64,000 nucleotides of DNA. Origin: an uncultured virus (IMG/VR IMGVR_UViG_3300028048_000084) (taxonomy: Duplodnaviria; Heunggongvirae; Uroviricota; Caudoviricetes). Below, piece after piece: positions 29,124-56,948 of this stretch. The number at the start of each line of letters is the position of its first letter. Positions within the stretch are counted from its first letter, which is position 1. The notes below the pieces were generated by a model, which saw only the letters and a list, made by a program, of their open reading frames with translations, ran no database searches and had not been told where the DNA came from. Where the stretch lies: the IMG/VR virus record IMGVR_UViG_3300028048_000084. The stretch is one strand, 5' to 3'. The translations under genes and the position numbers were made by a program.

Positions 29124-29513
29124 TTAAATGCCGTAAAATTTAATAAATTCTTTTTCAAAATCTGTTTGGAAGTTATCGAACAAGTCTCTAAACATTTTGA
29201 ATAGAATGCCACTCGAAATGCAATACCAATTATTTATAATATAGTGAAATGGATTGCATTTCAGATTACTCAATTCAAAGAAATGAGAGTGGGAACATAG
29301 AATTTTTGATGTAATCAAATCATAACAAACATTATGTATATCAATCCCATTACGATTGAAGAATAGATAAACTAGATATTTATTATGTTTTGTTTTTTGT
29401 TGATAAGAATAAAAATAATCTATATCTATATCTTCAAAATAATATTTAAATGGTTTTAATAGTTCATAGCCATCATCAGTTAAATATAAATGACTTAATT
29501 TAATCATCGACAC
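29124..29513 (-). CDS. G-(L/I/V)-COOH family protein
   Basis: Ends FIKFYGI*. Confidence 0.75.
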   Translation of the reverse strand: MSMIKLSHLYLTDDGYELLKPFKYYFEDIDIDYFYSYQQKTKHNKYLVYLFFNRNGIDIHNVCYDLITSKILCSHSHFFELSNLKCNPFHYIINNWYCISSGILFKMFRDLFDNFQTDFEKEFIKFYGI

Positions 29514-31002
29514 CGAAAATCACTTCTTTCTTAGAACGTTTTGTGAGTTGCATCAGAACTTTGATTTTTGTAAGGTATTTGTTATATTCATCAAGTAATA
29601 GGTTAAAAGTGTGTTTAACTTTTTTATATCCGTTATATCCGTCACTAGGATTGTCTTTCCAATCGTAGTTAGCTTTGGACAAACCATAAGGAGTTTTGAT
29701 GAAATAGATGTCATTTTTCATATCTTCTTCATTCAAATAATATCCGGTTTTCTGTTTATCCAATACTACATAACCGTGTTCAAATTCAAGAATTTTAAAA
29801 TCGTCGAATTTATCATAATCCTCTACATGGAAATTAGAACCTGTAGCATAATTAAAGGCAGAGAACAAAGAAGTCTGGTCATATGGTTTACTAGAAATTA
29901 TTTTAAAACTGTTATGAATATAATCAGAAGGATTATGATACGCAAAATTGAAAGCCATATTATAACGGATACTGCTATTATAGTGTTTGCTATAGGCAAG
30001 TGGAGCAGTCATTTTAACTGTTACGTCATTGGTTTTAATAACAGGTTTACTCATACGAGAATACTGACTACCAAGCATTTTCTTTACTAAAGATTGTTGA
30101 TGTGTAGACATTTTGTCAAAATCGGTAAAAAGGGCAAGTATAGTATCGTAAATGATTTTAGTTTCTTTACTATAATCTTTAATACGTTTTACGATATTAA
30201 ACAAATCCCATGCCGTATAAATGAAGAAAAATTCTTCACCTAATTTAATGCGCCCATAGATACCAGGGATATTGAACAAATGTTTTTGACGGATTTTCAC
30301 AATCTGTTTCTGCTTTTTTGTGGTTTTATTATATCCATTATAACGACCGTTCAAATTATCGGAAACATGGTCACGGAGAATACGGTTGAATAAGGACAAT
30401 ACAATGCCATTATTTTTCATTACATCTGTGTTTTCGTCAAAGTAATAAAGAGAATTAAAAACATCTTCTTTATTTAAATCCAAGTCTGTTTTTTTATAAC
30501 CAAACTGTTTTTTCTCTTTATTAATCATACTAAAAGCATAACGGCAATTATTATCAGCAAACTGTTTTTTGAAACCGTATTTCAGATATACTTTTTTACC
30601 AAAGAAATTTTTGATACATACCAAAGTATAGCTAGAATTAGATTTGGTCATAAATGGAGTGAGAATGAGAACATCATAAATCTCCAAGTCTTTATTGTTA
30701 GGGGATTCCATATCCATATCACGCATATCATACGTGCTATTATACAAATTAGTATTCATACTATAGCTATAGTAATACGTGCTAACATAAGAACCAAAAC
30801 GGCTAACATTGTTTTCCGACTGTCTTTCAATAATATTGCGATACATAACATTATCGTTATTATTCAATTTATTGCCATGAAATTTGACAATAATAGAACT
30901 GTCTTTAAACTGTTCCATAATAGTGGTAATACGATTTTTTGTGAAACTGTTGTTCAAAATTTTTTCATTCAAATCAATCAGATATTTACGAAAGGTTTTC
31001 AT
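29500..31002 (-). CDS. Hypothetical protein, paralog of 31123-32451
   Basis: ATG at 31002 after GGAGG and promoter; shared IL.NSFT, F.DFDKMS, EY.KY. Confidence 0.8.
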   Translation of the reverse strand: MKTFRKYLIDLNEKILNNSFTKNRITTIMEQFKDSSIIVKFHGNKLNNNDNVMYRNIIERQSENNVSRFGSYVSTYYYSYSMNTNLYNSTYDMRDMDMESPNNKDLEIYDVLILTPFMTKSNSSYTLVCIKNFFGKKVYLKYGFKKQFADNNCRYAFSMINKEKKQFGYKKTDLDLNKEDVFNSLYYFDENTDVMKNNGIVLSLFNRILRDHVSDNLNGRYNGYNKTTKKQKQIVKIRQKHLFNIPGIYGRIKLGEEFFFIYTAWDLFNIVKRIKDYSKETKIIYDTILALFTDFDKMSTHQQSLVKKMLGSQYSRMSKPVIKTNDVTVKMTAPLAYSKHYNSSIRYNMAFNFAYHNPSDYIHNSFKIISSKPYDQTSLFSAFNYATGSNFHVEDYDKFDDFKILEFEHGYVVLDKQKTGYYLNEEDMKNDIYFIKTPYGLSKANYDWKDNPSDGYNGYKKVKHTFNLLLDEYNKYLTKIKVLMQLTKRSKKEVIFGVDD

Positions 31003-31042
31003 TTTGTTTATCCTCCTATTTATCTCTCTTTTCTTTATACTT

Positions 31043-31071
31043 ATATTACCACATTTTTTATAATTTGTCAA
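31043..31071 (-). promoter_or_regulatory. Sigma-A/sigma70-type promoter
   Basis: TTGACA-17-TAATAT with TG extension. Confidence 0.8.
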
Positions 31072-31122
31072 CAGTTTATAAAAAAATACCACCCTCTTTA
31101 AATAGAGAGTGGTATGATTGAT

Positions 31123-32451
31123 TTAATTAGCAGAACTGTTTAGCAGGTTCTTAACGAAGGTTTTTTTGTCCATTCCACGGAGTTTAGCCATTGTTGAAAC
31201 GTATTTAGTATATTCGTTGTGCAAAGCCACGGTACGTCCATAGAACGTATTTTTGTTTTTGCGAGGATGGTCTTTAAGTCTATACTGTGCGGAACTAAGG
31301 TCGATTTCTGTATATCCAACAATAGTAGGGATAAAGTAGTCATTTTTACTATCTGTTTCGCTTTTAATAACTACTTTGCCACTATTCAAATCAACGATAT
31401 GATAACCTTTGTTCTTATAATCATCAATCGTTGGATAGTTAGAAATCAAAGATTCAATGAACATATCAACGATTTTCTTATCTTCTTCAGATATATCACC
31501 TGTAACAGAAAATCCTGCAAAAAGCGTATATACGTCACTAGAATCACGACTGAAATTATGGAAATAGTTTTTATCACGACTATAATATTCCATATCGCTA
31601 TTATCGAAATAATTCAGATTAAACGCAACGGAGTTCTTCAAACGAACACGAATATTACCATTGTTGAATAAATCATTGTGAATCTTATTGTAATAATTGC
31701 CAAGGAATGTTTTAATAATATCCAATTCATTATCAGACATTTTATCGAAATCCTTGAAAAACAGTTCAAAATATTTTTTGAGTGTCTGAAAGTTTTCATC
31801 ATCTTTCATATTATCAAAAATGGTTTCTACCTGTTCAAAAGAAAACAGTTCAAAAGGCATACCATTAATGATAATAATTGCATAGGCAGAAGGAACGATA
31901 AAATGATTATTAATTACATCATCAATAATACAATCATCATCATCATTCATAGAATAATAATATAGCTCATTTTTAGGCATAGACAAACCTACGATAAATG
32001 CATCATTACCTTTTTTATAGATGGCACTATTATAAAACGGAAATGTATTATTGATTGTCGTAGGAACAAAAGAAATTGTGTTGTTTTTTGCAAGCGAAAA
32101 CATTTCCATATATCTATATTTATCATCCACATACAGTTTTTTGAATGATGTAAGCAGACTTACTTTATGCCCCATGAAGTCATTAAAACAATAAATAGAA
32201 TGGCTCATTCCATTATTGTTAGTCATGTGGTTAGTGTTAATAACAATCATGTCATAGCGTTCTGTGTTCTTAATTTTTTCGATAACATCATCATCCATAT
32301 ACAAATCCTGATTACGATATGTTCCTGTGAATTTACTTTCGATAATATCGTAACCATTTTCACTATTATCAATGATTTTATGAATAAGTGGATGGTCAGT
32401 AAAAGAGTTCTCCAGAATTTCCTTTTCCAAAGTAGAAAATACGTTTGTCAT
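31123..32451 (-). CDS. Hypothetical protein, paralog of 29500-31002
   Basis: 442 aa; own promoter, GGAGG RBS and terminator. Confidence 0.8.
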   Translation of the reverse strand: MTNVFSTLEKEILENSFTDHPLIHKIIDNSENGYDIIESKFTGTYRNQDLYMDDDVIEKIKNTERYDMIVINTNHMTNNNGMSHSIYCFNDFMGHKVSLLTSFKKLYVDDKYRYMEMFSLAKNNTISFVPTTINNTFPFYNSAIYKKGNDAFIVGLSMPKNELYYYSMNDDDDCIIDDVINNHFIVPSAYAIIIINGMPFELFSFEQVETIFDNMKDDENFQTLKKYFELFFKDFDKMSDNELDIIKTFLGNYYNKIHNDLFNNGNIRVRLKNSVAFNLNYFDNSDMEYYSRDKNYFHNFSRDSSDVYTLFAGFSVTGDISEEDKKIVDMFIESLISNYPTIDDYKNKGYHIVDLNSGKVVIKSETDSKNDYFIPTIVGYTEIDLSSAQYRLKDHPRKNKNTFYGRTVALHNEYTKYVSTMAKLRGMDKKTFVKNLLNSSAN

Positions 32452-32491: not shown

Positions 32492-32794
32492 CTATATATT
32501 ACCACAACAAAAAAGATTTGTCAATAGTTTTAAAAAAAAATTATAAAAATAGATGATATGATTTACATACCATCTTGAAGAATGAATAAATTGATTAATA
32601 TACATGTCAACATTAACAGTTTTAGAGTGTTTTGGATTTACATTATTTTTAATACGATATTTGAAATGAATAGATTGAATCCATTGAATTGTATTGCGAA
32701 TGTAATCATCTATATGAACGATAATAAAATTTACAGGGACAAATAAAATCATCAGGAAATTAAAAATCTGTTTTATATATACATCATAATCCAT
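32492..32794 (-). pseudogene. Probably truncated ORF running into the downstream promoter
   Basis: 3' end is promoter sequence; coupled to the G-(L/I/V) operon. Confidence 0.4.
32496..32524 (-). promoter_or_regulatory. Sigma-A-type promoter
   Basis: TTGACA-17-TAATAT with TG extension. Confidence 0.8.
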
Positions 32795-33197
32795 TCATAA
32801 TAGAAAATCTATATTTTAAATCTTTTTTATTTAAATTTTTTAAACAATATGTTGGAAATGTTTGATTTATCATAGTATAAAATATTGAACCATAAGAATT
32901 AACTAAAAAAAATGCACTCAATTCTTGTGTAGCTTTTTCTACTGTTTTTTTATTGATAAAATCAGGATAATAAAATGCGGTACGAGAACGTGCAATTGTT
33001 TTTGTAGATTTTCCTTCACCCGTTGTTATAAATAAAGTTACACGAATTTTATGTGCCGAACTAAAATGATAATAATAATGAAATGCATAACAAACATTAT
33101 CATCATATATATGATACATTTCATACATCTGATTGTCTAATATGCTTGCTTTTATTGGAATATCATTGAAATGTTTGAATTTTTTTATTGTATACAT
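32784..33197 (-). CDS. G-(L/I/V)-COOH family protein
   Basis: Ends FSIMNGL*. Confidence 0.75.
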   Translation of the reverse strand: MYTIKKFKHFNDIPIKASILDNQMYEMYHIYDDNVCYAFHYYYHFSSAHKIRVTLFITTGEGKSTKTIARSRTAFYYPDFINKKTVEKATQELSAFFLVNSYGSIFYTMINQTFPTYCLKNLNKKDLKYRFSIMNGL

Positions 33198-33199
33198 TT

Positions 33200-33916
33200 T
33201 TATAACCCCAATTTAAAAATAGTGGCTTGAATGAATTTTGGATATTCTTTTTCAATATAATGATGATAAGTGTATTGAATTAAAAGATACAACATGATTT
33301 TATAATAACATTCATCTTCATTATTGTAAATGCAAATACTATACTGATTTGCGTTCCAAAAGGTATTAAAATCTTTCCATGCAGTTTTATTATTATATTC
33401 ATATCTTTGTATAAAACTATTTTTCATAGACACCTCTCCAAATGCATTAACAAACTCATGTAGTTTATAAATAGTTAAGCAAATAGATGGTGTATGGATG
33501 AAATCAATTTTGCTTTTTTTAGGAATATAATTTTTAATGGAAAATTTTATTGTAATATCTTTATATCTGGTTTTAAAAAACCAAACCATAAGATTGTTTA
33601 AATGGTCATATTTGCCTGTGTAATTAAAATAATCTAACTCAAATTTATCAGTTAGATTATTTAATGCTTGTTTACTAAGTCCATATTTGTCATTAAAAAA
33701 GAAAAGTTTATCTTCTTCATCTAATGAAACATGTAATGGTATAAAAAATTTGTGGTATATGTAAAAGAAACAACAAATAATCCAAGTCCACACATTATAA
33801 CTACATAACATAATTCTGTTGAATATATTTTGAATAAAATGAATCATAATCCAAGTCCAAACATTATAACTACATAACATAATTCTGTTGAATATATTTT
33901 GAATAAAATGAATCAT
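33200..33916 (-). CDS. G-(L/I/V)-COOH family protein with duplicated N-terminus
   Basis: Ends TIFKLGL*; 69-bp tandem duplication at the 5' end. Confidence 0.75.
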   Translation of the reverse strand: MIHFIQNIFNRIMLCSYNVWTWIMIHFIQNIFNRIMLCSYNVWTWIICCFFYIYHKFFIPLHVSLDEEDKLFFFNDKYGLSKQALNNLTDKFELDYFNYTGKYDHLNNLMVWFFKTRYKDITIKFSIKNYIPKKSKIDFIHTPSICLTIYKLHEFVNAFGEVSMKNSFIQRYEYNNKTAWKDFNTFWNANQYSICIYNNEDECYYKIMLYLLIQYTYHHYIEKEYPKFIQATIFKLGL

Positions 33917-34299
33917 AATCCAAATCCTCTAGCAATATCATTTAGAGTAATATTCGGAAACTCTTTTAATCCGTTTGCCTTTATTTTATACCAATTATCA
34001 TGATTTATTGTATCTAATAGAATGTTTCTTAGTTTTTTAGAAAGGACATTCTGATTTTTTTCTGTTATATAATATTTTCTAGTTATTTCGGTAGAAAAAT
34101 CACCAGAATGATAAATAATATATAATGCATGACTATTTTGAGAATAATTGATAGTGTATTCTAATGTTTCTGCATAGAAATTATTATAACAACCTTTTTG
34201 TAAATTGAGTTGTTCTTGTTTATAGAAAAGAACTTGACTATTATATCTTTCTAAATCTTCATTTGAAACATTAACAAAACAATTATAAAATTCTATCAT
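33913..34299 (-). CDS. G-(L/I/V)-COOH family protein
   Basis: Ends IARGFGL*; similar to 34316-34684. Confidence 0.75.
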   Translation of the reverse strand: MIEFYNCFVNVSNEDLERYNSQVLFYKQEQLNLQKGCYNNFYAETLEYTINYSQNSHALYIIYHSGDFSTEITRKYYITEKNQNVLSKKLRNILLDTINHDNWYKIKANGLKEFPNITLNDIARGFGL

Positions 34300-34315: not shown

Positions 34316-34684
34316 TTATATACCAAAATTTTGAATAATAGTTTCTTTTGTTATCGTGGGAATATTAGTAATTTTATAATCAAGAGAAAGAATATAATGA
34401 GATTTGTTTCTAAATTCTTTATACAATCCATTTAAAATATCTTCATTGATATGTTCTGTAATTGGAACATTAAATGTGCTAAATCCACATTCATCAATTG
34501 CACAAACAACATAAACCATATTATTGTGTGTGTTATAGTTAATATAAAATTCCAATTTTGTTTCTGCTTCTCTATAATTGATTTTTGCAGGAACATTATC
34601 CAATACAATATGAAATATTTGCTCATTCATCCATCTGTCATATTCTTTTTCAGAAACATAGGTGTTGTGAATAAACATAATCAT
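34316..34684 (-). CDS. G-(L/I/V)-COOH family protein
   Basis: Ends IIQNFGI*; promoter at 34724-34751. Confidence 0.75.
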   Translation of the reverse strand: MIMFIHNTYVSEKEYDRWMNEQIFHIVLDNVPAKINYREAETKLEFYINYNTHNNMVYVVCAIDECGFSTFNVPITEHINEDILNGLYKEFRNKSHYILSLDYKITNIPTITKETIIQNFGI

Positions 34685-35135: not shown

Positions 35136-36995
35136 TTATTCTAATAGTTCATTTAATTCTTCTTCTGTAATAATGGGAATATTTAACTCACGAGCTTTGT
35201 TGGCTTTCGTAGATGTAGAATTTTTATCATTCATAACTAGATAATTCGTCTTTTTGGTCACAGAACCAGCTACTTTATATCCTTTACTTTCTATTAAAGC
35301 AACGATTTGATTACGTGGTTTAGATAATGTACCTGTAATTACAAAAGTAAGATTTTTTGATTCTATCTGATTATCTATTGGTTTAATATATTTTCTTAGT
35401 GTTTCCATTTCTGAAATAAATTTGTCGGAAATTAATTTTTTTGCCGTTTTCTCTCCAATACCATCAATAAATGTTAAATCAGATTTTGTAGATAGAATAG
35501 CATACAAATTGTCGTATGTATGAAAAGTTTTTGCTAGAATTTTACTTACATTACTACCAATGTTTGTAAAACCAATAGATGAAATAAACACTTCTAACGG
35601 TAGTGCTTTTACTGATTGAATAGCATCAAATAAATTTTCAGCAGACTTTGTAGCAAATCCATCTAGTTGTTCAATCTGCGCTAGTGTCAGATTAAATACA
35701 TCTGTTGGTTCAGATACAAATCCTTTAGCAATTAGTTTTTCAAGAGTTTGCTTAGATAAACCTTTGATGTTCATATTTTTCTTGGAAAACATATATCCCA
35801 TGCGACTAAGCAATTTACCTTGACATGTATCATTTGTACAGATTAAATTATATGAATTTGTATTCGTTGGTTGCTTTGTAAGTACTTGTCCACAAACAGG
35901 ACAAACAGTAGGAATATTCAATTTTGTTCCATTAGATGATTGAATTTTTTGTGTAATTTTAGGAATGATTTTATTCGATTTGATTACCATAATCGTATCG
36001 CCTACATGGAAATTAAATGACTCTGCGATACCTGCATTTGATAATGTAGCTTGTGATACAGTTGTACCTTCTAATTGAATGGGGTCAAAAATAGCAATAG
36101 GAGTTACACATTCTTTTCCTACTTGCCATTTTATATCACGGATATATGTCGTTTTAGCTTCATCTTCTGCTTTATAAGCGAAAGCATTAAGCGGATGATG
36201 CACAGTAGAACCAAATTTTTCTAAACTGTGTTCAATATTTGATTTAATTACAATACCGTCTATAGGAATATTTTTGTTAATATTATCTTGATACATTTGT
36301 TCGATGTATGTAATTACACGGTCAGAAGAACAATTTGGTTGAATATAAGAAACAGTTTTAAATGATGTGTTATCTTCAATATATTTCAATTTGTCTAATT
36401 CTGTTTCATCGTAGCCAATGACATCATAAGCAAGGAATTTGATTTTGTCTAAATAAGGAGATTTATCTAGTCTACGCAAAATGCCTGCTGCTGCATTTCT
36501 TGCATTAGCAAATAATGGTTTATTTTGTTTGTCTTGTTCCTTATTAATTTCTTCAAAATCCGATTGCGTTAAAAACGCTTCTCCACGAATAGGATAATCA
36601 GAATGGTTTGGTTCATAAGGGAAGTTATTTAAAATTTCACCTTCAGAACCATTTCCTCTAGTAACAAATTTACCATCAGGATAGGCAACAATAGTTAATC
36701 CATCCAATTTTAATTCAAGTACAACAGGGTACAGTTTTTTAATTCGGTCATTTAATTTTTTCTTTTCATAGAATTTAATTTTATCTAATGAATTAATATT
36801 AGTTGGATGTGTGAAAGGTTTTAATCCTTTTTTAATATCACCAGAAATATAATTTAATTCATCTGTACCAAAATGAGTGATGAACTCATTACGGATATTA
36901 TCGTAATCTTCATCACTCATAATTGGACTATCTTCATTGTAATAAGCATTGTCCGCTTGTTTTATCTTTTGAAGTAGTGTGTCGTGTAAATTCAT
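35136..36995 (-). CDS. ligA: NAD-dependent DNA ligase
   Basis: ELKLDG, TRGNG, RGE, RNAAAG, DGIVIK, Zn finger, HhH repeats, BRCT (FVITGTLS). Confidence 0.97.
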   Translation of the reverse strand: MNLHDTLLQKIKQADNAYYNEDSPIMSDEDYDNIRNEFITHFGTDELNYISGDIKKGLKPFTHPTNINSLDKIKFYEKKKLNDRIKKLYPVVLELKLDGLTIVAYPDGKFVTRGNGSEGEILNNFPYEPNHSDYPIRGEAFLTQSDFEEINKEQDKQNKPLFANARNAAAGILRRLDKSPYLDKIKFLAYDVIGYDETELDKLKYIEDNTSFKTVSYIQPNCSSDRVITYIEQMYQDNINKNIPIDGIVIKSNIEHSLEKFGSTVHHPLNAFAYKAEDEAKTTYIRDIKWQVGKECVTPIAIFDPIQLEGTTVSQATLSNAGIAESFNFHVGDTIMVIKSNKIIPKITQKIQSSNGTKLNIPTVCPVCGQVLTKQPTNTNSYNLICTNDTCQGKLLSRMGYMFSKKNMNIKGLSKQTLEKLIAKGFVSEPTDVFNLTLAQIEQLDGFATKSAENLFDAIQSVKALPLEVFISSIGFTNIGSNVSKILAKTFHTYDNLYAILSTKSDLTFIDGIGEKTAKKLISDKFISEMETLRKYIKPIDNQIESKNLTFVITGTLSKPRNQIVALIESKGYKVAGSVTKKTNYLVMNDKNSTSTKANKARELNIPIITEEELNELLE

Positions 36996-37824: not shown

Positions 37825-39363
37825 TTAACAAATAATCGTTTCTTCAATATCACGTGTATAATCTTTATTATAAGGAATGTACGCACGTAATTTGTTCATA
37901 CGGTCAAGATAAAAGCAAACTTTACCATTTTTGTAGTCAGATACATTATACACCAAACCATCATTTGTTTCAATGATATTTGTATTAAGATGAAAATTAT
38001 CAAGAGGTTCACGTAAATCTTCATCAGGGATTTTAGAAATAATATCATTCGTTAAATATTTTTCCAAATCTTCTTTGCCAAATTTACGTGCATGACGCAA
38101 ATCGTAAATCTCGAAATCCTCTTTTTCTTCTTCAATGCGGATAAATACATCTTCATTAACATGATTAATGTCAATATAAGGGGTTTTGTACTTATCTTCA
38201 ATCAAATGTCCCTGATAAAAAGCATTATCTTTGTATGGAATTGTATATTGTGGCTTATTATCCTTATTTAAATATACAAACACGTAGAAGTCATGATAAC
38301 CATCAATATGGCATTTTACTTTATAAAAGTATACGTGCTCATACTGAACATTTTCTTCACCATATTCTGCCATTTTGGTATCATCAATTTTTGTTTCAAA
38401 TGTAATGGGAAGATGAACTTTGGCTTCCAATTCTTTTTTAAGCCAATTCAAATCCAAAGCCTTTTTAATTTCATCATGAGAACTTTCTTTTGCTTCTACC
38501 TTTTTTTCATCAATTTTTTCCAAAGGAACGCCATTAAGTTTAAACAAATTTACACGAGAGAATTTGTTTTTGCAAATACCTCTACGAATAATTCCTTTGC
38601 GAAAGTCCTTATCCATTTTGTTAAAATCTGCATAATCAATTTCTTTATCACTTTTCGGTTCGATAGTAAATCTGTCCAAATTATTACCGATAACAGGGAT
38701 ATATAATCTCAAAGCGTTTTTGTTGTCAAGAAAAATATATCCAAAGAAATCCAAGTTTTTCTTAGAAGAAAAACGCATAACCAAATGTGGAATAATATTC
38801 TTTGAAAAATGGTCAACCGTTACATTGATAATATCATCATAGTCAATGGAAACAATGCAATCTTTATAGACAAAATCCAAAATGTTTGCATCTACATCTT
38901 CTGCATATACGTGTTCCAAATATTTGTCGAACTGTTTCTCGCTAATAGTAGCATAGCTAACCATTTGTTTACGAGAACGACCAGGGCAAACATTATTATG
39001 GAAATCTTCATACATTTTATGAATCTTATCCTTATCAGAAAACCATTCTGTGAGTTTTACCGAATCAAGAGGAATAGCATGACGAATATTGTTGTTATCT
39101 GCTTTTGACAAGAGATTGTGTTTCGGAATATAGGCACGCAGTTTATCGTTTGTATCATAATACAAGACGAAAAATACAGGCATTTCATCATCCTTGTGTG
39201 CGCTACAAAGATATGTATATGTACCCTTTGCATAAAATGTGAAATTATCAAAAGTCATGTCAACTTTGGAAAAATCAGACTTAACATTTTTATACAGTTT
39301 GTCCAAATTTTCCATTTCCTTTAGAACATCTTTACTGGTTTTGTCCATTGTCATGCGTTTCAT
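37825..39363 (-). CDS. Hypothetical protein with four internal repeats
   Basis: Y.D....LRAYIP / LRLYIP / PQYTIP / LRAYIP. Confidence 0.8.
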   Translation of the reverse strand: MKRMTMDKTSKDVLKEMENLDKLYKNVKSDFSKVDMTFDNFTFYAKGTYTYLCSAHKDDEMPVFFVLYYDTNDKLRAYIPKHNLLSKADNNNIRHAIPLDSVKLTEWFSDKDKIHKMYEDFHNNVCPGRSRKQMVSYATISEKQFDKYLEHVYAEDVDANILDFVYKDCIVSIDYDDIINVTVDHFSKNIIPHLVMRFSSKKNLDFFGYIFLDNKNALRLYIPVIGNNLDRFTIEPKSDKEIDYADFNKMDKDFRKGIIRRGICKNKFSRVNLFKLNGVPLEKIDEKKVEAKESSHDEIKKALDLNWLKKELEAKVHLPITFETKIDDTKMAEYGEENVQYEHVYFYKVKCHIDGYHDFYVFVYLNKDNKPQYTIPYKDNAFYQGHLIEDKYKTPYIDINHVNEDVFIRIEEEKEDFEIYDLRHARKFGKEDLEKYLTNDIISKIPDEDLREPLDNFHLNTNIIETNDGLVYNVSDYKNGKVCFYLDRMNKLRAYIPYNKDYTRDIEETIIC

Positions 39364-39492
39364 TGTTGTTTTCTCCCTTTCTGTTTGATTTATATTGACA
39401 AATTTCACTAGTAACCTTAATTACCATATTACAAAACAAAGCTACTATGAAAAACGTTAAAATTGGGCAGAAACTCATAAATTCAAATATAT

Positions 39493-47783: not shown

Positions 47784-48143
47784 TTATATTCCTTCACCGA
47801 TAATCAAAATCTTATTCAATTCTTTAATAAACCAATCTTTATATAATTTAATAATTCTTTTTGTCGCTCGTTCTATACAATCACCATGTAAACCTTTTGT
47901 TCGATTAAATGTAAATTGATTTTTATCATTGAAAATATATTCAACGCCACGTTTACTGTGTATAACACTATCTCTATGTATATTTATAGTAACACTTACG
48001 CAAGATACATTTTTATACATAATATGAAATAATGGAGAATATGAGAAACATATAAAAATATTTCGATGTATAAACCATCGTTGAATATCATTTTTGTGGT
48101 TATAACAATTTAATTTTTCCTTATCTATTTGAAATCCATGCAT
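47784..48143 (-). CDS. G-(L/I/V)-COOH family protein
   Basis: Ends LIIGEGI*. Confidence 0.75.
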   Translation of the reverse strand: MHGFQIDKEKLNCYNHKNDIQRWFIHRNIFICFSYSPLFHIMYKNVSCVSVTINIHRDSVIHSKRGVEYIFNDKNQFTFNRTKGLHGDCIERATKRIIKLYKDWFIKELNKILIIGEGI

Positions 48144-48447: not shown

Positions 48448-48753
48448 TCATAGTCCATTTGCTATCCCAAAATTTTTCATAATACAATCAATTGTATGAA
48501 TAATAATTTCCTTTGAAGTTCTCTTACCTTTCATTATACGCAATATTTCATCTTTTGTGTAATAAAGGTTTCTTTCTTTGTTTTGTCCTATATACATTAG
48601 TTTATTAAAATTCTTTCTCATTTTTGTATCTACTACACTAATAACAAATACTCCACTAAGTTCAATAGGTATGATTTGTACCATATATTTTCCATCATCT
48701 GTTACATAGCGAAAACTAACATTATTAATTATTTCCATTAATTTCCATTTCAT
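48448..48753 (-). CDS. G-(L/I/V)-COOH family protein
   Basis: Ends FGIANGL*. Confidence 0.75.
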   Translation of the reverse strand: MKWKLMEIINNVSFRYVTDDGKYMVQIIPIELSGVFVISVVDTKMRKNFNKLMYIGQNKERNLYYTKDEILRIMKGKRTSKEIIIHTIDCIMKNFGIANGL

Positions 48754-48763
48754 AATTCATTCC

Positions 48764-49105
48764 TCATAAACCATGTGACATTGTATAAATGATTTTACAT
48801 CTTTTTTGAATCCACATTTTGTTATTGGACATGATTTGTTGTAATTCAATGTCTCCTTTACATCTTACCTTATTCGACCGCCTAGACATGATTGTATTCG
48901 ATTCTGTATAATCTACAATATAGCCAAAACCTTCAAAAAGGTCAATGCTATTTATTGCTATATCTATATAATTGTTCCACAAAATTTTCTTCGGAAACAC
49001 AAAACCAAAATGAATTAGTTGAATAGTAAATCCTTTATATATATACAATTCTTCAATTCTATCTCTTGTATATAACGATGTCTTTAATTTGAATTTGCCC
49101 ATCAT
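48764..49105 (-). CDS. G-(L/I/V)-COOH family protein
   Basis: Ends YTMSHGL*. Confidence 0.75.
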   Translation of the reverse strand: MMGKFKLKTSLYTRDRIEELYIYKGFTIQLIHFGFVFPKKILWNNYIDIAINSIDLFEGFGYIVDYTESNTIMSRRSNKVRCKGDIELQQIMSNNKMWIQKRCKIIYTMSHGL

Positions 49106-49435
49106 TTATACACCATTCGTCATAACGATAAAAATTTTTGACATATGAATAATGTTATTATATGTAGTTTCTTTAATAATTGAAATTATATCTCCTACAC
49201 AAACATTTTTTATTTTACCATTATCTGTAGTTAGCCATTCATTATCTGCATAATACCAATAATAATAATGTATTTGCTCACCACATTTTATGGTTATATT
49301 GATATAAGATAAATCCCCATGTATAATATTCCCTGCTTTATATGATAATTCAATTAAATAATTATTATCTTGAATTAATAAATTGCCATAATAACCATGG
49401 ATATAATCTATTACTATATTTGCTTCTTTAATCAT
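49106..49435 (-). CDS. G-(L/I/V)-COOH family protein
   Basis: Ends IVMTNGV*. Confidence 0.75.
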   Translation of the reverse strand: MIKEANIVIDYIHGYYGNLLIQDNNYLIELSYKAGNIIHGDLSYINITIKCGEQIHYYYWYYADNEWLTTDNGKIKNVCVGDIISIIKETTYNNIIHMSKIFIVMTNGV

Positions 49436-49437
49436 AA

Positions 49438-49755
49438 TTATATCCCATTTATCATTACAAATACTTTTCTACATTCATCTATATACTTCTCACAAATTTC
49501 TGTTTCAATTTGTTTTAAAAATACTCTCGTTTGAGCATCGTTTCTAAATGTTTCAAATCCCATTAAAGTCATTTCAATATTATGACAATAATCTTTCGTT
49601 ACCAAAGTAATGGTTAATGGATAACCATTAAAATCTTGAAAAAAATTGCTTAAATGAAATATGTATTCTTTATCTATTTTCCGTAAAGCAATAAACCCAT
49701 AACTTATACAATAATGATTTGTATCAGAATATTTCGCTATATTGCTACTTAACAT
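49438..49755 (-). CDS. G-(L/I/V)-COOH family protein
   Basis: Ends FVMINGI*. Confidence 0.75.
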   Translation of the reverse strand: MLSSNIAKYSDTNHYCISYGFIALRKIDKEYIFHLSNFFQDFNGYPLTITLVTKDYCHNIEMTLMGFETFRNDAQTRVFLKQIETEICEKYIDECRKVFVMINGI

Positions 49756-49759
49756 ATCA

Positions 49760-50117
49760 TCACACCCCAACTATATATCTTATCTCTAATATCTTAATGA
49801 TTCTATCTAATTCTTTTTCTATTTTTTTATAATATTCTTTATAATATTTTAGTTCTTTCATTAATTTATTGTTTTCTGTCATATTGTATTGATAGATTTT
49901 ATTCCCCTTTGTCATCTATAATGCGAGACAAATGACCAGTAAATTGACTAGAATGTCCAACAATTAATTTATTGTTAATCATTATGTTCGCATGTATTGT
50001 TGATTTAGTATATGACCTAATAATGCTTATCTCGATGTCATATTTATATTTTAGTTTTACATAAATTAATTCTCTCTTTTGAAATAATGCAATACTTTTT
50101 ATGTGTTGTACTTTCAT
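49760..50117 (-). pseudogene. Frameshifted G-(L/I/V)-COOH family gene
   Basis: Shift at a GGGG run near 49905; downstream frame ends IRYIVGV*. Confidence 0.65.
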
Positions 50118-50120
50118 TTT

Positions 50121-50459
50121 TTATATCCCATTAGCTATTACAAGCAATTGATTTATATGACCTAAAATTTCTTTTTTATAATTTTTAAAAACATCAGAAT
50201 ATCTGCTTCTTTTATATAAAATTGCCATTCCACTCGGCGTTGGTAAAAAATATTGATATTTTCTTCTCCGATTGAATTTGTTTATAACAAAATGTATTTT
50301 TAATAATTTTCCAAAAGCTATTTCAACATTCGTTTGTTTTAAAAAACACCGCATTAATATGGTTATATCTGTTCCATCTACTAATTGAACGTCAGATACC
50401 AATTCTATATGCGGTGCAATAGGTTTATGTAAATTGTTTACTACTTGTAAATTAATCAT
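50121..50459 (-). CDS. G-(L/I/V)-COOH family protein
   Basis: Ends LVIANGI*. Confidence 0.75.
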   Translation of the reverse strand: MINLQVVNNLHKPIAPHIELVSDVQLVDGTDITILMRCFLKQTNVEIAFGKLLKIHFVINKFNRRRKYQYFLPTPSGMAILYKRSRYSDVFKNYKKEILGHINQLLVIANGI

Positions 50460-50475
50460 CAATAGCACTTCCTTA

Positions 50476-50825
50476 TTATAACCCATTTAGTAATGTACAT
50501 TCTTTTCTGTCTACCCTTATTAATTCATTCCTCGCTTGTAAAAAACTTACTAACGCTTTGTTTCTTTGCTTATTTGATAATTTCCTGTAATTCTTAACTA
50601 GTGTAAAACGACATCCATTATCTGATGTGTATATACTTCAGAAAAATATTTGTTTACTCGATACTTTAAATATAATGTCTTTAAGCGATATATTCCAAAT
50701 TTTCGTGTTATTGTATCGTAATAATACATGGCAGGTTTATAATAAGAGTTATATAATCTGATTTCATAATCATCATCAAATAAATTCTTTGTCATATTGT
50801 ACTGTATATATATCCATTTTTGCAT
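50476..50825 (-). pseudogene. Frameshifted G-(L/I/V)-COOH family gene
   Basis: Shift near a T run at about 50645; downstream frame ends CTLLNGL*. Confidence 0.65.
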
Positions 50826-50831
50826 TATCCT

Positions 50832-51230
50832 TTATATTCCATTTATCATTACTGTCCATATTCTACAATATTTTGTGATTTCATTAAAATGTTTGTATAA
50901 TATCATTATACTTAAATTTCTGTTTATATCATCCCCGTAATGATATTTTTTTTCTGGTTCTATACAAATACCATTGTCTCTCGTTACCATATAAAATGTA
51001 TACCTGCTAATTTTGATGAAATACTTGATATATCCATGACGTATTGGCTTATATCTCGATATTTTATTTAAATGATTCGGGAATTGCATATTTTCATTAC
51101 ACATTAGTCTTTCATCTGTTACAAAATCATATAATCTAATCCTTACTTTTTTGTGCGCATCGATATATGATTTTATAACGTCTCTTAAATCTTCTTCATT
51201 ATATTCTGCCCTATATATAAGTTTTTCCAT
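50832..51230 (-). CDS. G-(L/I/V)-COOH family protein
   Basis: Ends TVMINGI*. Confidence 0.75.
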   Translation of the reverse strand: MEKLIYRAEYNEEDLRDVIKSYIDAHKKVRIRLYDFVTDERLMCNENMQFPNHLNKISRYKPIRHGYIKYFIKISRYTFYMVTRDNGICIEPEKKYHYGDDINRNLSIMILYKHFNEITKYCRIWTVMINGI

Positions 51231-51554: not shown

Positions 51555-51932
51555 TTATATTCCTATTTCTCTGATATATGTTCTCTTTATTTCTCGTTCA
51601 CTAAAATATTGTAAAATGTTTTGTATATCTACTTGTATATTCTGCTCTTTCTCTCCATAAATTGCTTTATCATATAATTGTAGATTTATATGCTCTTTAT
51701 TATTACAGTTATATATATAACGTATGGAACTAGGTACATATTTTTTCGTCCCATCTATCTGAATGATTATATATACTGCATTACAACATCTGAATGTGGT
51801 TAGTATAATACTATAAAAATGCGTCTCCGTTTCATATTCGTATTTTTTATGTATTGTCTCATTTTCTTTATTTAATTTGGTATATCCAATTGTATTCTTA
51901 TATACAATTTTCGGTTCTGCTTTGATTTCCAT
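51555..51932 (-). CDS. G-(L/I/V)-COOH family protein
   Basis: Ends YIREIGI*; followed by a terminator. Confidence 0.75.
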   Translation of the reverse strand: MEIKAEPKIVYKNTIGYTKLNKENETIHKKYEYETETHFYSIILTTFRCCNAVYIIIQIDGTKKYVPSSIRYIYNCNNKEHINLQLYDKAIYGEKEQNIQVDIQNILQYFSEREIKRTYIREIGI

Positions 51933-52359
51933 TTCGGATTTTCTTCCTTTTATATATAATTATTTATCTTGTAAAATTTCTTATATATATTAATTGTTCT
52001 TTATATGAATGTTATTATTCGATTTTTTTTGTAAAATGTCTTATATGTTGTTTTATTATGTATATTTATTTAATTTCGATGAATAAATATAATTTTTTGT
52101 CGGTATAAAAAATAAAATTCTGCATTTTTATACAATAAATGGACAAAACTCTTATTTTTCGGTCATTTTTGCATTTAAATTGGTTTTTGTATATATAGAA
52201 ATAAAAAGTTTTGTGTGACTATGATGTGAATAAAATAAAAATGTGATTTTTTATGCGAAAATTCATAGATTTTTGTGATACGTTTGTGTTTATATATAAA
52301 TATATGGATTTTGTCGCGGTTAGTCCGGTTCAGTTTTATTTTTTATCCGTCTATAGTTT

Positions 52360-52780
52360 ATTTATTAAATAAATTGGCTTATTTATTAAATAAATTGGCT
52401 CGGATAGGGCGTTGGTTCAGTAATTTGATTTAATTTGATTTTGTTTTTGTGAAAAAATAAAGTGTAAATTTTTTGGTGAATAAAAAATTTGCGGACGTTG
52501 CGCGAGATATGATTTATTTCATATAATCTTGTTTTATTCATTGTTATCTAATTTACTTCATATAATTTTTGTTTAATTCATTGTATATATCTGATTTACT
52601 TCATATAATTTTTGTTTACTTCATTATATTTATCTAATTATCTAATTTGCTTCATTATATTTATCTAATTATCTGATTTACTTCATATAATTTTTGTTTA
52701 ATTCTTATATATAAATCTAGTCATCTGATTTAATCCATATAGTTTTATAATTCAATACTAAGTTTAATTCTTATATATAT
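52360..52780. repeat. AT-rich direct repeats in a 1.7-kb non-coding region
   Basis: ATTTATTAAATAAATTGGCT x2; ATCT(A/G)ATTTACTTCATATAATTTTTGTTTA x3 plus variants. Confidence 0.8.
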
Positions 52781-53506
52781 AACTTAATTCATCAGATTGA
52801 ACCGAACCATTTATCCCATATATATTTTATTCAATTTATTCATTATATTTAACTGATTAAAATTCATTCATATATATTTCTTTGATTTAATTCTTATATA
52901 TTTTCACTACGGATTTAATTCATATCTTTACTTAATTTTATTTCTCGTTCATAGATATATCATTTATTATATATACTGCTCCCCTGCCTTTGTATATTAT
53001 ATCCTATAACAGAATTGAATTTTATTATAATAGATAATTGAATTTTATTATAGCATTTATATTTCTTCATTTCATTTATATATCCCTGCTCCGCTTAAAA
53101 AATTTATCTATCTAAGTTTACTTCTTGATGGGAAAATATTTTATATTTGTCATTGAATAAAATAAGATAAATGATTTTTGACAAATAAATTTTTTAGTTG
53201 TGTATTTTCTGTCATTTACACTTTTTTATGATGCGAAATTGATAAGGGTTAAAATTTGTATTATGTATGCTTTTTTGATATAAAATATCATATTTTACAT
53301 TACACTTTGTTATAGATTACGTTTACCGTGCCGAAATTATTGACCCATTTTTACAAGAACTTTTTCTTTAAGATTTTTATCCCTATAGATGGATGGCAGG
53401 ATATTTTAAGAAAAATAAAAAGACACGTTTCTAAAACGTGTAATAAATAGCATAAATAAAAGTGTCAAGTATAATTATATATATTTATTTATATGAATGT
53501 GTAGAA

Positions 53507-53570
53507 AATTAAATAAATTTTTGTGTAAAATTAAATAAATTTTTGTGTAAAATTAAATAAATTTTTGTGT
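53507..53570. repeat. 21-bp tandem repeat x3
   Basis: AAATTAAATAAATTTTTGTGT. Confidence 0.9.
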
Positions 53571-53610
53571 TTATTATCCATTGTTTCATAATCCATTAAT
53601 GTATAGATAT

Positions 53611-54111
53611 TTACAATCCATTTTTAGATAAAACGATTTGACATTTATGATGTACTAATTGAATTGTTTCTTGCGCGTAATTTTTATATTCATCTGATTT
53701 AAAGTATTTTTCTCGTCTATATTTTGTTGGAATAGTACTAAACAGATAATATTGTAAACTATCCATAATAGAAGTAAGTGTATCATAAGGATAATAATTT
53801 TTACTTTGAACAGTAAATCTTACAGATGAACATAAAGAGCCTTGTTGTTTGATATATTCTGCCACATTAAAATCTTTAGATTTGTATGATTTATCTAAAG
53901 AAGTAATAGTAGATTTTGGGGGAATATGATGTGTTTTATCCTTAAAGAAAAATCGTTTGATATTGATATTAAATAATGGTTTGTTTTTTGGTTTACCGTG
54001 AACATTGACTTGATTTAATGTAATTTTATCTGTAATTAATTCTACTTGAATATAAAAGCAGTCGAAAAACACATCAAGAATGTAATTAGGTGATGGATAA
54101 TATGAAACCAT
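53611..54111 (-). CDS. G-(L/I/V)-COOH family protein
   Basis: Ends VLSKNGL*. Confidence 0.75.
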   Translation of the reverse strand: MVSYYPSPNYILDVFFDCFYIQVELITDKITLNQVNVHGKPKNKPLFNINIKRFFFKDKTHHIPPKSTITSLDKSYKSKDFNVAEYIKQQGSLCSSVRFTVQSKNYYPYDTLTSIMDSLQYYLFSTIPTKYRREKYFKSDEYKNYAQETIQLVHHKCQIVLSKNGL

Positions 54112-54179: not shown

Positions 54180-54629
54180 TTAAATCCCATACGCACGGAT
54201 TAATCTACTTCTAGTTTGTTGGAAGATAACAGGAAGTGTATCTAACAGATTTTGTTTCAGATTGGTATAAACGAAATTATCTGTTATAATAGAAAGAATA
54301 TTTTTTGCTAAATGATTAAAATTATGATTGATAGCCACGCTTAAATAATCAATGAATACTAATTGATTACATTCATTTAAGTGTTGAATATAAACGTCTT
54401 TATTCTGATTATTAATAGATAATGTAATATAAAAATCTGTTTTATCCATATTCACATTGACGATTTTTTTTGTAGGAGAAAAGGAAATACTTGTACCATT
54501 AAAATTATAATCAATGGAAGTAAAACAAAAGTTATAAGATAGCAGGTAAGAGTTTTCTTTTGTCTTATTTGATGTGAGTGGATAAGAGAAAGAGAATGTA
54601 TAATCATAACAATTATCTACTACGGTCAT
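54180..54629 (-). CDS. G-(L/I/V)-COOH family protein
   Basis: Ends LIRAYGI*. Confidence 0.75.
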   Translation of the reverse strand: MTVVDNCYDYTFSFSYPLTSNKTKENSYLLSYNFCFTSIDYNFNGTSISFSPTKKIVNVNMDKTDFYITLSINNQNKDVYIQHLNECNQLVFIDYLSVAINHNFNHLAKNILSIITDNFVYTNLKQNLLDTLPVIFQQTRSRLIRAYGI

Positions 54630-54691: not shown

Positions 54692-55282
54692 TTATATTCC
54701 ATAAAAATATATACACTCCTTATAGGTAAGCGGTAATATATATTGATTCATTATCTTATTTACCTTTTTTTCTAATTTATTAAATTTCTTGCGGTTAAAT
54801 TGTAATTTAGCCATATGTTCTTTATCTGCATTATACCAATATTTGAAACAATCATTATAACATTTATTCATATTATGAATAAAATAATGATGGAGGTTTG
54901 TATACGATTGATGAAAAGACTTCTTATCTATGGGTTGAATAATATGAAAAAAGTTCATATTGACATTTTCACTTGACCGTTGTAATGAACATTCATCATC
55001 TTGATAACGAAAGGAAGAACTAATAAAAGTTTTGCTACCATTCGTAATTTCAAATTCTAATTGAAACTGAAACGTGTGATATTGAAAATTGATTTTGCAT
55101 GATAAACGATTTATCATATTAGCAAAAATAACTATTTTTTTCATGTGTTCATCTATGGGAATATCGTATTTAATAGACACATTAGATAATCCATAAGCGT
55201 CATTTATGTTATAAACTCGTTGTATAAAACTTTTATTGGCATAAACCGTTTTTGCTTGTGGCAGGATTGCGCCTTTTGTCAT
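54692..55282 (-). CDS. G-(L/I/V)-COOH family protein
   Basis: Ends CIYFYGI*. Confidence 0.75.
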   Translation of the reverse strand: MTKGAILPQAKTVYANKSFIQRVYNINDAYGLSNVSIKYDIPIDEHMKKIVIFANMINRLSCKINFQYHTFQFQLEFEITNGSKTFISSSFRYQDDECSLQRSSENVNMNFFHIIQPIDKKSFHQSYTNLHHYFIHNMNKCYNDCFKYWYNADKEHMAKLQFNRKKFNKLEKKVNKIMNQYILPLTYKECIYFYGI

Positions 55283-55420: not shown

Positions 55421-55783
55421 TTAATCTCCGTCCCATACTCCATCGGGGCGCATTTCTGCCATTGTTTTCAGTTGGATAAGTGCGCGTTTTGCGTTCCCTT
55501 CTGTAGCATCCCAATAATTATTAGATACATCATCTTTCAGATTGCTAATAGCTTTTTCCAAAATCGGAATAGACTGTGCTCCTGTCTTTCCATAAATAGA
55601 ACGAATACCTTTTTCACCTAGTACATTATCCTTGTAATAATGCTTACTGTAATTGTATGTTACATTTAGGTACAATTCTGTCGTTCCATTGATTGCATAC
55701 ATCCCCCCACGCATAAAGTGAGGATGGTCTACATTCAATACTTCATGCGTAATCGGGTCTTGCAGTTCAATATCGTAACTCAT
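55421..55783 (-). CDS. Conserved-looking phage hypothetical protein
   Basis: MSYDI...NVTYNY...YWDATEGNA...RPDGVW; own promoter and terminator. Confidence 0.8.
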   Translation of the reverse strand: MSYDIELQDPITHEVLNVDHPHFMRGGMYAINGTTELYLNVTYNYSKHYYKDNVLGEKGIRSIYGKTGAQSIPILEKAISNLKDDVSNNYWDATEGNAKRALIQLKTMAEMRPDGVWDGD

Positions 55784-56286
55784 GCCAATCTCTCCCTTCT
55801 TTTTATTTATAATATAGCACAAATACATTGTTTTGTCAACAGTTTAAGTACTGTCTATCAACAGTTTTAATATACTGTCTATCAACAGTTTTAATTAAAA
55901 ATTAAAGTGATATATTTTTGTATTTCATAAATAGAAAAACATATAATCAGAACTATTCTTATAAGGTTGTTTTCTTATCCTTTCTATTAAAACCTGCTTT
56001 TCATCTAAGAATAAAATGTACTGACTTGTTTTTAAGCAGATATATTTCTCGTTCCTATGTGTTTTTCTTCGTATACACGGTTTTCGTGTACCTATCCTCC
56101 TAATCCTAATACTATATATTATTTTGCTTTAAGCTATCATTTCGATGATAGCTTTTTATTTAACTGTTTATAATCCTAGTTGTTTCACTAAACTTTTCTT
56201 TGTGTTATTTACGAAACTTTTCTTCGTTCTAATTATAGCAGGATATTTCTATTCGATTGTTCATTTTTGTTGCTACTTCCTTATCA

Positions 56287-56700
56287 TTATAATCCCACTT
56301 CTTGTACTAAACTTTTCTTTATTCTATCCTTGTTTCTGTCAAACATTTTTATACATAATTGTTCCAACTTTTTACCTAAATAATAATCATTTTTATTCCT
56401 ATAATAGCTTACATCTTTATTTAAGTAAGAATGAAAATCATCATATAACGCATTTAATCCATTGTTTATGTGTTGAAATAAAACGGATATATTTTGATAT
56501 ATAATCAATATTTCTTTATCGTTTTTATTATAAGAACGCTTTATGGATAAAGAATTGTGATAAACACATACCATTGAACCTATAAATATTATCTTTTCCA
56601 TCGTTGTTTTTGGGTAGATTTTAATCTGTACGTGCGTTATATTATATTTATCTTTGGACTTGTTATAAATGATTTCTATCTTATCATTCATTTTAATCAC
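56287..56700 (-). CDS. G-(L/I/V)-COOH family protein
   Basis: Ends LVQEVGL*. Confidence 0.75.
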   Translation of the reverse strand: MIKMNDKIEIIYNKSKDKYNITHVQIKIYPKTTMEKIIFIGSMVCVYHNSLSIKRSYNKNDKEILIIYQNISVLFQHINNGLNALYDDFHSYLNKDVSYYRNKNDYYLGKKLEQLCIKMFDRNKDRIKKSLVQEVGL

Positions 56701-56705
56701 TACCT

Positions 56706-56948
56706 TTATAATCCGAATGTTATAACTGTTTTTTTACGAATATTTTTAATGTTTTCATTATAAATCTTTTCATATACACCTGCAAATTTTTTCAATGCTT
56801 TTTTTGTTGTCGTTACAACACTTGAAAGTTCTAATTTATCAGATAACGGTGACATAAGTTCATCTATCGTAGCATCAATGTGCAAGGCAGGATATTTATC
56901 CAATGTTTCATCAAAATTATAAGTACATTCATCCATATTCAAAAACAA
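56706..56948 (-). CDS. G-(L/I/V)-COOH family protein (5' part from about 57127 is broken)
   Basis: Ends TVITFGL*. Confidence 0.6.
   Translation of the reverse strand: MFLNMDECTYNFDETLDKYPALHIDATIDELMSPLSDKLELSSVVTTTKKALKKFAGVYEKIYNENIKNIRKKTVITFGL

Follow-up and report, generated by a model that had tools for sequence, protein, structure and literature searches.

Small, divergent proteins of an uncultured phage that end in glycine and a hydrophobic residue

A 64,000-nucleotide (nt) stretch of DNA from an uncultured member of the Caudoviricetes (IMG/VR record IMGVR_UViG_3300028048_000084), the whole of which is called the window here, carries a block of small genes whose products end in glycine followed by leucine, isoleucine or valine. 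This ending (G-[LIV]-stop) closes 31 open reading frames (ORFs) of at least 40 amino acids (aa), all on the minus strand between positions 29124 and 56948. On balance, the proteins that bear it, called GL proteins below, are best read as one clade-specific, hyper-divergent and massively expanded family of basic early proteins, which would probably be binders in host interaction. A terminus recognized by a partner, whether for docking or as a degradation signal, is a serious but less likely rival.

The terminal motif and its constraint

The 31 ORFs are 51-238 aa long, with a median of about 121 aa, and they bear out the initial annotation, which had listed some 30 ORFs of 70-240 aa with this ending. 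Enrichment was calculated on a greedy set of non-overlapping ORFs of at least 45 aa (n = 105); the greedy step left out three members (40083-40304, 44301-44651 and 44664-44903), for which overlapping plus-strand ORFs were preferred. In this set 28 ORFs end in G-[LIV] compared with 1.06 expected from the internal G[LIV] dipeptide frequency (binomial P = 1.3e-31). The ending closes 28 of 48 minus-strand ORFs in the range and none of the 57 ORFs elsewhere (Fisher P = 7e-13), in agreement with the earlier claim that other genes lack it. The dipeptide enrichment, which had been proposed as a check, extends to the two related phages described below.

The consensus reaches about 11 residues upstream. 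Counting the last residue as -1, it consists of a hydrophobic residue at -11, Lys or Arg at -10/-9, hydrophobic residues at -7 to -5 (mostly Ile or Val at -6), Asn, Phe, Tyr or Ile at -3, Gly at -2, and Leu, Ile or Val at the end. A Lys or Arg occurs somewhere in -11 to -8 in 27 of the 31 tails, and all 31 have at least two hydrophobic residues among -7 to -5. Position -6 is hydrophobic in 26 of the 31 window tails and is Ile or Val in 33 of 53 family representatives. At -3 the residues are Asn (9 of 31), Phe (6), Tyr (4) and Ile (4), and all 31 have Gly at -2, as the selection requires. The initial annotation had described a Lys/Arg-containing helix and about four hydrophobic residues before the Gly; this pattern stands, but the motif is longer than was described. 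A position-specific scoring matrix (PSSM) of the last 12 residues scored at least 10 bits at 72 of 570 C-termini and in 10 of 100,557 internal windows. The matrix was trained on the termini themselves, so the internal windows are the background, and the tail motif is more than 1000-fold commoner at termini than at internal positions.

The ending could in principle arise at the DNA level, with GGN-NTN-stop serving as a Shine-Dalgarno or coupling signal, as a recombination site, or by chance. The next ORF does lie within 15 nt of 16 of the 31 genes, and GGA is somewhat overused as the tail Gly codon compared with gene bodies (54/94 vs 112/277). However, the 94 tails from three genomes encode this Gly by GGA (54), GGT (23), GGG (13) and GGC (4), use twelve different codons for the last residue, and stop at TAA (66), TGA (26) or TAG (2). 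The only invariant elements are the GG, the T at the second position of the final codon and a stop. Third codon positions track ordinary codon usage, the 12 nt downstream of the stop carry almost no information, and the pattern over the 11 upstream residues is kept as amino-acid classes, not as bases. The next ORF is more than 60 nt away for 14 of the 31 genes, several of which are followed by a terminator hairpin. The earlier statement that codons and stops vary holds over this larger set, and the one that the motif persists where a terminator follows holds as well. Because third positions are neutral and 14 genes have no near downstream ORF, a ribosome-binding or coupling explanation fails, and the probability of chance is about 1e-31. 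The enrichment statistics, codon data and intergenic distances refute a DNA-level origin, which is given almost no weight. The ending is constrained at the protein level, not by DNA or translational coupling.

Conservation and turnover in related phages

Two relatives were available for comparison. The NAD-dependent DNA ligase of the window (35136-36995) is 84% identical to the ligase on a 281,186-bp IMG/VR contig (G001; 28.1% G+C, CheckV completeness 98%). The third genome, a metagenome contig of 29.8 kb (L019), was the one extra relative found by the metagenome scan. The gene content of G001 includes an intein-bearing anaerobic ribonucleotide reductase, many radical-SAM enzymes, PARG, NADAR, an M16 peptidase and a sigma-70 region-4 protein, and the window is therefore taken to come from an uncultured jumbo phage of an anaerobe. 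Scans of viral contigs returned nothing for 50832-51230 and only the 281-kb contig for the ligase and for profile A1. No close cultured phage was detected, as blastn with 18267-26241 and tblastn with a 744-aa protein were both empty.

The ending is abundant in both relatives. In G001, which served for the genome-wide count, 39 of 393 ORFs (at least 50 aa) end in G-[LIVMF], 32 of these 39 lie at 130-170 kb, and GL, GI, GM and GV rank among its commonest C-terminal dipeptides. In L019 the count is 26 of 42 ORFs. The terminus is kept in 14 of 15 window-G001 ortholog pairs, and the exception is a shorter G001 relative of 51555-51932. The initial annotation had named loss of the motif from the extreme C-terminus of homologs as a result that would refute it, and the orthologs behave otherwise. 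Ortholog bodies are about 32% identical between the window and G001, compared with 84% for the ligase and 78-84% for neighboring large proteins. Apart from the Gly and the hydrophobic pattern, the tail residues diverge nearly as far (38% identity vs 32% for the body).

Synteny shows a conserved backbone with replaceable slots, and from phage to phage one slot is filled by GL genes that cannot be aligned with each other. For eight window genes (48448-51230), G001 and L019 lack a relative and carry other GL genes in that place. This rapid turnover between related phages supports the arsenal-like behavior that had been suggested for the set, and the turnover of sequences and cassettes together points to host interaction. 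Profile searches gave 14 matches for A3 and 10 for A7 among 5.8 billion proteins, and 9 representatives for A6 among 1.84 billion. All matches were proteins of this phage clade, none had an informative name, and all end in G-hydrophobic save obvious fragments or frameshifted single-member variants. The tail is absent or extended only in fragments, single-member variants, the shortened G001 relative of 51555-51932 and a possible stop-loss gene at 50598-50825.

Relatedness, predicted fold and role of the ending

The GL proteins are barely related by sequence. Only 2 pairs among the 31 reach E<1e-3 in phmmer, which confirms the earlier description of unalignable bodies with a few paralogs. The 107 proteins with the ending from all sources cluster into 53 families, and iterated hidden Markov model searches merged none of them. 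With 30 members as queries, neither Pfam nor PHROGs yielded a family above noise; PDB sequence profiles for two families matched only one designed scaffold, and Foldseek against PDB and BFVD gave no match at E≤0.001. Leads from the ESM Atlas were inconsistent: 50832-51230 pointed to HATPase_c_2 at 0.89, and 43831-44208 to unnamed phage clusters only.

Composition and predicted structure give a different picture. The GL set has a median isoelectric point of 9.0 vs 7.1 and an aromatic content of 16% vs 11.7%, and a transmembrane-like segment occurs in 5 of 94 GL proteins vs 52 of 277 others. AlphaFold 2 (AF2) models of moderate confidence cover 2 of the 53 families, those with the deepest alignments. 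The model of the GL0 member (43831-44208, 125 aa, ending IISIGV) has a predicted local distance difference test score (pLDDT) of 75.9 and a predicted template modeling score (pTM) of 0.71. DSSP assigns it strands 2-13, 20-31, 36-43 and 46-53 and helices 97-109 and 112-123, followed by G124 and V125. The model of the GL1 member (33913-34299, 128 aa, ending ARGFGL; pLDDT 74.8, pTM 0.72) has strands 22-35, 41-53, 58-65 and 71-77 and helices 80-100 and 119-126, followed by G127 and L128. The element order is alike in the two: four antiparallel strands (12-14, 12-13, 8 and 7-8 residues), a helix, and a final helix that ends at -3. In both, the tail is an integral helix modeled at core-like confidence and not a peptide on a linker. 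The top five VIA-align matches of the GL0 model all come from the Mam33/p32 (gC1qR) family; they consist of seven antiparallel strands with two helices at the C-terminus, and the alignments span 94-99 of 125 residues. The PDB match lists of the GL0 and GL1 models differ, in a comparison of 2 of the 53 families.

Periodicity extends this layout across the set. The alpha-minus-beta moment of the last ~27 residues is 0.16-0.19 in 47 family representatives vs 0.04-0.08 in 161 decoys, and alpha periodicity covers -24 to -12 in the 47 families. Residues 10-65 lean toward beta in the same representatives (-0.02 to -0.075; decoys, +0.03 to +0.07). Only 0.7% of residues at -22 to -10 are Gly. The initial annotation had called the proteins unrelated, which is made doubtful by the one layout of both folded families, the set-wide beta-then-helix periodicity and the basic, aromatic-rich composition; in structure and composition they are probably not unrelated. 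It had also allowed that all members might be one fold in which the GL ending is merely structural. The like layout of 2 of 2 folded families bears this out in part, but these are 2 families of 53.

The position of the Gly suggests a helix cap. Aurora, Srinivasan and Rose reportedly described the Schellman loop in 1994 as a glycine helix C-cap with hydrophobic residues. Asn, the most frequent residue at -3, is a common cap residue. An alpha-helix directly precedes the Gly in both AF2 models. The Gly stands at C', the hydrophobic last residue (L/I/V/M/F) at C'', and the residue at -6, hydrophobic in 26 of 31 tails, at C3. The resulting spacing, h-x-x-[cap]-G-h, where h is hydrophobic, fits a Schellman-type glycine C-cap as judged from the models. 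In such a cap the Gly would be in the left-handed conformation, with 6-to-1 and 5-to-2 backbone hydrogen bonds. Mi, Nguyen and Burgess (2023; PMC9951308) describe a Schellman loop with a "hydrophobic triangle" at C3, Ccap and C'' and a model peptide spacing of X-A-A-X-G-X. The GL tails share this spacing: the modeled helix extends to -3, C' (-2) is Gly, and C3 (-6), C'' (-1) and often Ccap (-3) are hydrophobic. They differ in that the chain stops exactly at C'' in more than 100 proteins and the Gly is never replaced, whereas an ordinary cap is neither terminal nor invariant.

Under the favored single-family reading, a GL protein would be small (median about 125 aa), soluble, basic and aromatic-rich, built of an antiparallel beta-meander at the N-terminus and amphipathic helices after it. 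The Schellman-type cap would close the last of these helices; it would be formed by a hydrophobic C3 (-6), a cap residue at -3 that is often Asn or aromatic, Gly at C' and a hydrophobic C'' where the chain stops. The variable sheet and loops would be the working or binding surface, and the conserved capped helix would stabilize the scaffold. The genes, similar in size, are arrayed in tandem on one strand in a single genome block and would be transcribed as early-type operons from host sigma-70/sigma-A-like promoters, with terminators closing several groups. The proteins would act in host interaction, as takeover or counter-defense factors. For this family we infer common ancestry, Schellman geometry, early timing and function alike.

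Two points weigh against a single family with a plain helix cap. When the last 14 residues were removed, hhalign placed none of 210 family pairs above 8% probability, and single-family similarity was thus not seen at this level. The hhalign scores differ marginally (12.1 for GL-GL pairs vs 11.1 for GL-decoy pairs), and two decoy pairs top every GL pair; matches between GL families and decoys at 22-24% probability were spurious on inspection. In addition, a plain cap leaves unexplained why the Gly is never replaced, why the chain rarely runs on, and why the tail alone survives divergence.

A shared docking or targeting tail would have the helix-Gly-hydrophobic-COOH element act as the common plug for one conserved phage or host partner, with variable adaptors or effectors assembled on this hub. 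All 53 families (107 proteins) retain Gly at -2 and the exact end of the chain, while their bodies have diverged past profile detection, and orthologs whose bodies are ~30% identical retain the terminus. The tail is present on each of the alternative cassettes that occupy one locus, the exceptions are the few listed above, and the enrichment of the motif at termini over internal positions also favors docking. Against it, the tail is modeled as an integral helix in a region nearly devoid of Gly, its residues vary almost like the body, and Pfam recognized no candidate hub domain, in a genome of which much cannot be annotated. The hub scan covered 40 window proteins and 207 G001 proteins, the latter drawn from the 234 ORFs that reach 110 aa and lack the G-hydrophobic ending; the other 27 comprise 9 across piece boundaries and 18 in L009/L010, and those 18 are syntenic with Pfam-scanned window genes. 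PDZ, TPR, Clp, Lon, S41/tail-specific protease, sliding-clamp, E1/E2 and JAB domains were not found in this set by Pfam. A docking tail is possible on this evidence, with the greater weight elsewhere. In its strongest form, 30-40 fast-evolving early proteins per phage would plug into one conserved host or phage hub as an exchangeable library of adaptors or inhibitors. An invariant Gly and chain end on bodies past profile detection are as expected of such a universal plug, which is rated somewhat lower than docking in general.

Known terminal signals offer partial likenesses. Poxvirus ankyrin-repeat PRANC/F-box proteins are likewise a multigene family of a large virus with a variable body and a conserved extreme C-terminal element that plugs into a host hub. 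They have no sequence or fold kinship with the GL proteins, for which the Pfam scan gave no hub, and the GL tail is 12-14 residues and not a domain. Encapsulin cargo-loading peptides are also short C-terminal Gly/hydrophobic signals on unrelated cargo, which bind an HK97-fold shell. Those peptides sit on flexible linkers at no fixed distance from the chain end, whereas the GL tail is a modeled helix encoded by early-type genes. A cargo peptide of this type was rejected because there is no Gly-rich linker, the region is helical and the genes lie in an early-type block. A PDZ ligand would be an extended, accessible C-terminal strand with a PDZ-domain partner; the tail is modeled as a helix, and Pfam showed no PDZ domain among the 207 G001 and 40 window proteins. 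The bacterial sliding-clamp-binding motif has the consensus QL[SD]LF or QLxLxL; it was rejected since no tail has Gln at -6 and only 3 of 31 have Gln at -5.

The second form of a recognized terminus is a C-terminal degron, a non-polar end by which a host or phage protease would recognize early proteins and destroy them at a set time. The ssrA and MuA-type C-terminal signals lead to ClpXP or FtsH. Early-gene placement behind sigma-70-like promoters, the strict need for a free non-polar C-terminus and the basic residues upstream of the hydrophobic end are all in keeping with a degron. The motif is nevertheless not known to resemble any bacterial C-terminal degron, the tail is predicted to be structured, and no protease or adaptor gene was recognized; the nearest was a ClpX-type zinc-finger match (E = 8.5e-6), short of the Pfam cut-off, in 15208-15603 and in the G001 ortholog of that ORF. 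A degron is considered improbable. More improbable again is the idea, raised in the initial annotation, that the proteins are ubiquitin-like or Atg8-like precursors whose last residue is trimmed to expose Gly for conjugation. The aromatic-Gly-X-COOH ends of some members (FYGI, SYGL, TFGL) do resemble Atg8/GABARAP precursor ends. The models are a four-stranded meander and helices with Gly capping a helix, not a beta-grasp with an extended tail, the Pfam scans gave no ThiF/E1, E2 or JAB domain, and at least 30 different modifiers in one phage would be unprecedented. Trimming for conjugation is therefore disfavored.

Gene order, neighboring features and implications

All GL genes named here are on the minus strand. 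The lowest-numbered, 29124-29513 (129 aa), ends FIKFYGI and has a terminator-like hairpin 3' of it; its G001 and L019 orthologs end KFFGI. Next come 32784-33197 (137 aa, SIMNGL), with orthologs ending MFHGI, and 33200-33916 (238 aa, IFKLGL), with orthologs ending KVGM and KVGL. The latter is the longest member because of a tandem duplication at its 5' end, in which a 69-nt unit is present in 2.2 copies (33777-33927, 97% identical) and repeats the first ~22 codons. The GL1 gene 33913-34299 has a paralog at 34316-34684 (122 aa, IQNFGI).

Next in coordinate order is 40083-40304 (73 aa, ILLFGL), which has a terminator 3'. A perfect 26-nt tandem duplication at 40057-40110 repeats its last codons and stop, so that the second tail-coding copy is untranslated. 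It is followed by 40308-40691 (127 aa, VISYGL), related to 47784-48143 (E = 5.7e-5), by 40887-41384 (165 aa, IKGFGL), by 41381-41827 (148 aa, TLRIGL), whose orthologs end RRCGF in G001 and RRCGL in L019, and by 41909-42436 (175 aa, AINHGI), with a hairpin and T-run 3'. Beyond the GL0 gene 43831-44208 lie 44301-44651 (116 aa, AISNGL, terminator 3'), 44664-44903 (79 aa, IMSNGL), 45216-45560 (114 aa, CQLEGL) and 45560-46045 (161 aa, VFTEGI). The body of the last is 74% identical to its G001 ortholog, which ends YTEGL. Then follow 46122-46610 (162 aa, ALLFGL), 47376-47588 (70 aa, IYNIGI) and 47784-48143 (119 aa, IIGEGI, terminator 3').

Four successive genes have no relative in G001 or L019: 48448-48753 (101 aa, GIANGL), 48764-49105 (113 aa, TMSHGL), 49106-49435 (109 aa, VMTNGV) and 49438-49770 (110 aa, VMINGI). 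The short ORF 49760-49915 (51 aa, RYIVGV) is a weak member with a tail PSSM score of 3.1 bits. It precedes 50121-50486 (121 aa, VIANGI), 50832-51230 (132 aa, VMINGI) and 51555-51932 (125 aa, IREIGI); the last has a strong terminator 3', and its shorter G001 relative lacks the tail. Between these, the 75-aa ORF 50598-50825 has an internal RKFGI followed by TAT where its neighbors have TAA, and then 30 more codons, and may be a stop-loss derivative of a short GL gene. The highest-numbered genes are 53611-54111 (166 aa, LSKNGL), 54180-54629 (149 aa, IRAYGI), 54692-55282 (196 aa, IYFYGI), 56287-56700 (137 aa, VQEVGL) and 56706-56948 (80 aa, VITFGL).

Eight sites between 39972 and 57182 on the minus strand match the sigma-70/sigma-A-type promoter consensus at 11-12 of 12 positions, as consensus matches only. 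Their first hexamers start at 57182, 55839, 51503, 47313, 45104, 44266, 41882 and 40000. They are of the TTGACA-17-TATAAT type, lie ahead of gene groups, and carry an extended -10 TG in 7 of 8 cases. Intrinsic-terminator-like hairpins lie directly 3' of GL genes at 51554-51522, 47781-47760, 44302-44277 and 40055-40031 (minus strand), and 17 terminator-like hairpins occur in 39-58 kb vs 3.6 expected. The operons behind sigma-A promoters that had been proposed are thus supported as early-type operons, but promoter-like sites in total are not in excess over shuffled sequence (141 vs 161.6 expected).

Several other features lie in or beside the block. An AT-rich 1.7-kb gap (51933-53610, ~22% G+C) has no long ORF and contains a 43-nt unit repeated ~5 times (52510-52713), a perfect 21-nt repeat in two copies (52358-52400) and a perfect 22-nt repeat in three (53505-53570); the gap may serve as an origin of replication or as a regulatory array. 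A 114-nt unit in 2.6 copies (78% matches) lies at 57256-57557, upstream of the first GL operon. A conserved 527-aa protein in the middle of the block (37825-39408) is 78-80% identical in both relatives and has no family match; by eye, its alignment consensus shows four internal repeats, each with an LRAYIP-like end. Proteins of 530 and 442 aa encoded at 29500-32451, inside the block, are mutual paralogs kept in both relatives. At its C-terminus the 530-aa protein reads KKEVIFGVDD, in which two residues follow the tail pattern; its orthologs end otherwise.

The window as a whole has 25-38% G+C, mostly ~27%, and nearly all of its long ORFs are on the minus strand. No tRNA genes and no Rfam matches were found in it. 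Pfam matches in the window are a terminase fragment, guanylate kinase, a Dam-type methylase, the DNA ligase, a TnpB/IS605 gene and an SprT-like protein. One large window protein has tail-fiber repeats in common with cultured phages, and the matches of 7453-8985 to cultured phages are tail-fiber repeats only. The TnpB gene (58275-59384; OrfB_IS605 and a Cas12f1-like TNB domain) is 65-71% identical to Megasphaera and Selenomonas copies, a weak hint of a Negativicutes host. Region 15679-26241 holds two sets of large paralogous genes with like C-terminal ends (386 and 455 aa; 617 and 581 aa), which may be two alternative fiber or receptor-binding cassettes; the 581-aa protein has a weak PHROG match to head decoration. 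In G001, the anaerobic ribonucleotide reductase at 220-223 kb (L014) is split and bears an intein with a LAGLIDADG domain. A 1569-aa protein (L008:3846-8555) contains two more intein/Hint modules, with several HNH and GIY-YIG genes nearby.

No published account of such a family was found in searches of the literature on jumbo phage and megaphage paralogous families and on C-terminal motifs, and the set is absent from Pfam and PHROGs; the initial annotation likewise had not recognized it as a described system. The SPO1 host-takeover module and the T4 early genes are comparable in that many small genes of unknown function are arranged in tandem operons, preceded by strong promoters of the host type, but they are not known to share an invariant C-terminal motif. 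Large phages are known to carry expanded families of small early genes; what is new is an invariant, exactly terminal helix cap as the sole common feature. In this clade roughly one ORF in ten falls into a single undescribed set, with 39 of 393 ORFs in G001 and 28 of 105 in the window; the set evolves faster than its surroundings and keeps its exact ending. If a partner recognizes the ending, jumbo phages would have a new modular system of host interaction, defined by this ending, and a universal plug would be for bacterial viruses what the ankyrin/F-box families are for poxviruses. Should the ending be no more than a helix cap, the GL proteins would be a clear example from nature of a fold that accepts nearly any sequence outside its last turn, and the ending would also mark members where alignment fails. 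Under either reading, the G-hydrophobic-stop signature is a cheap flag for such genes in metagenomes.

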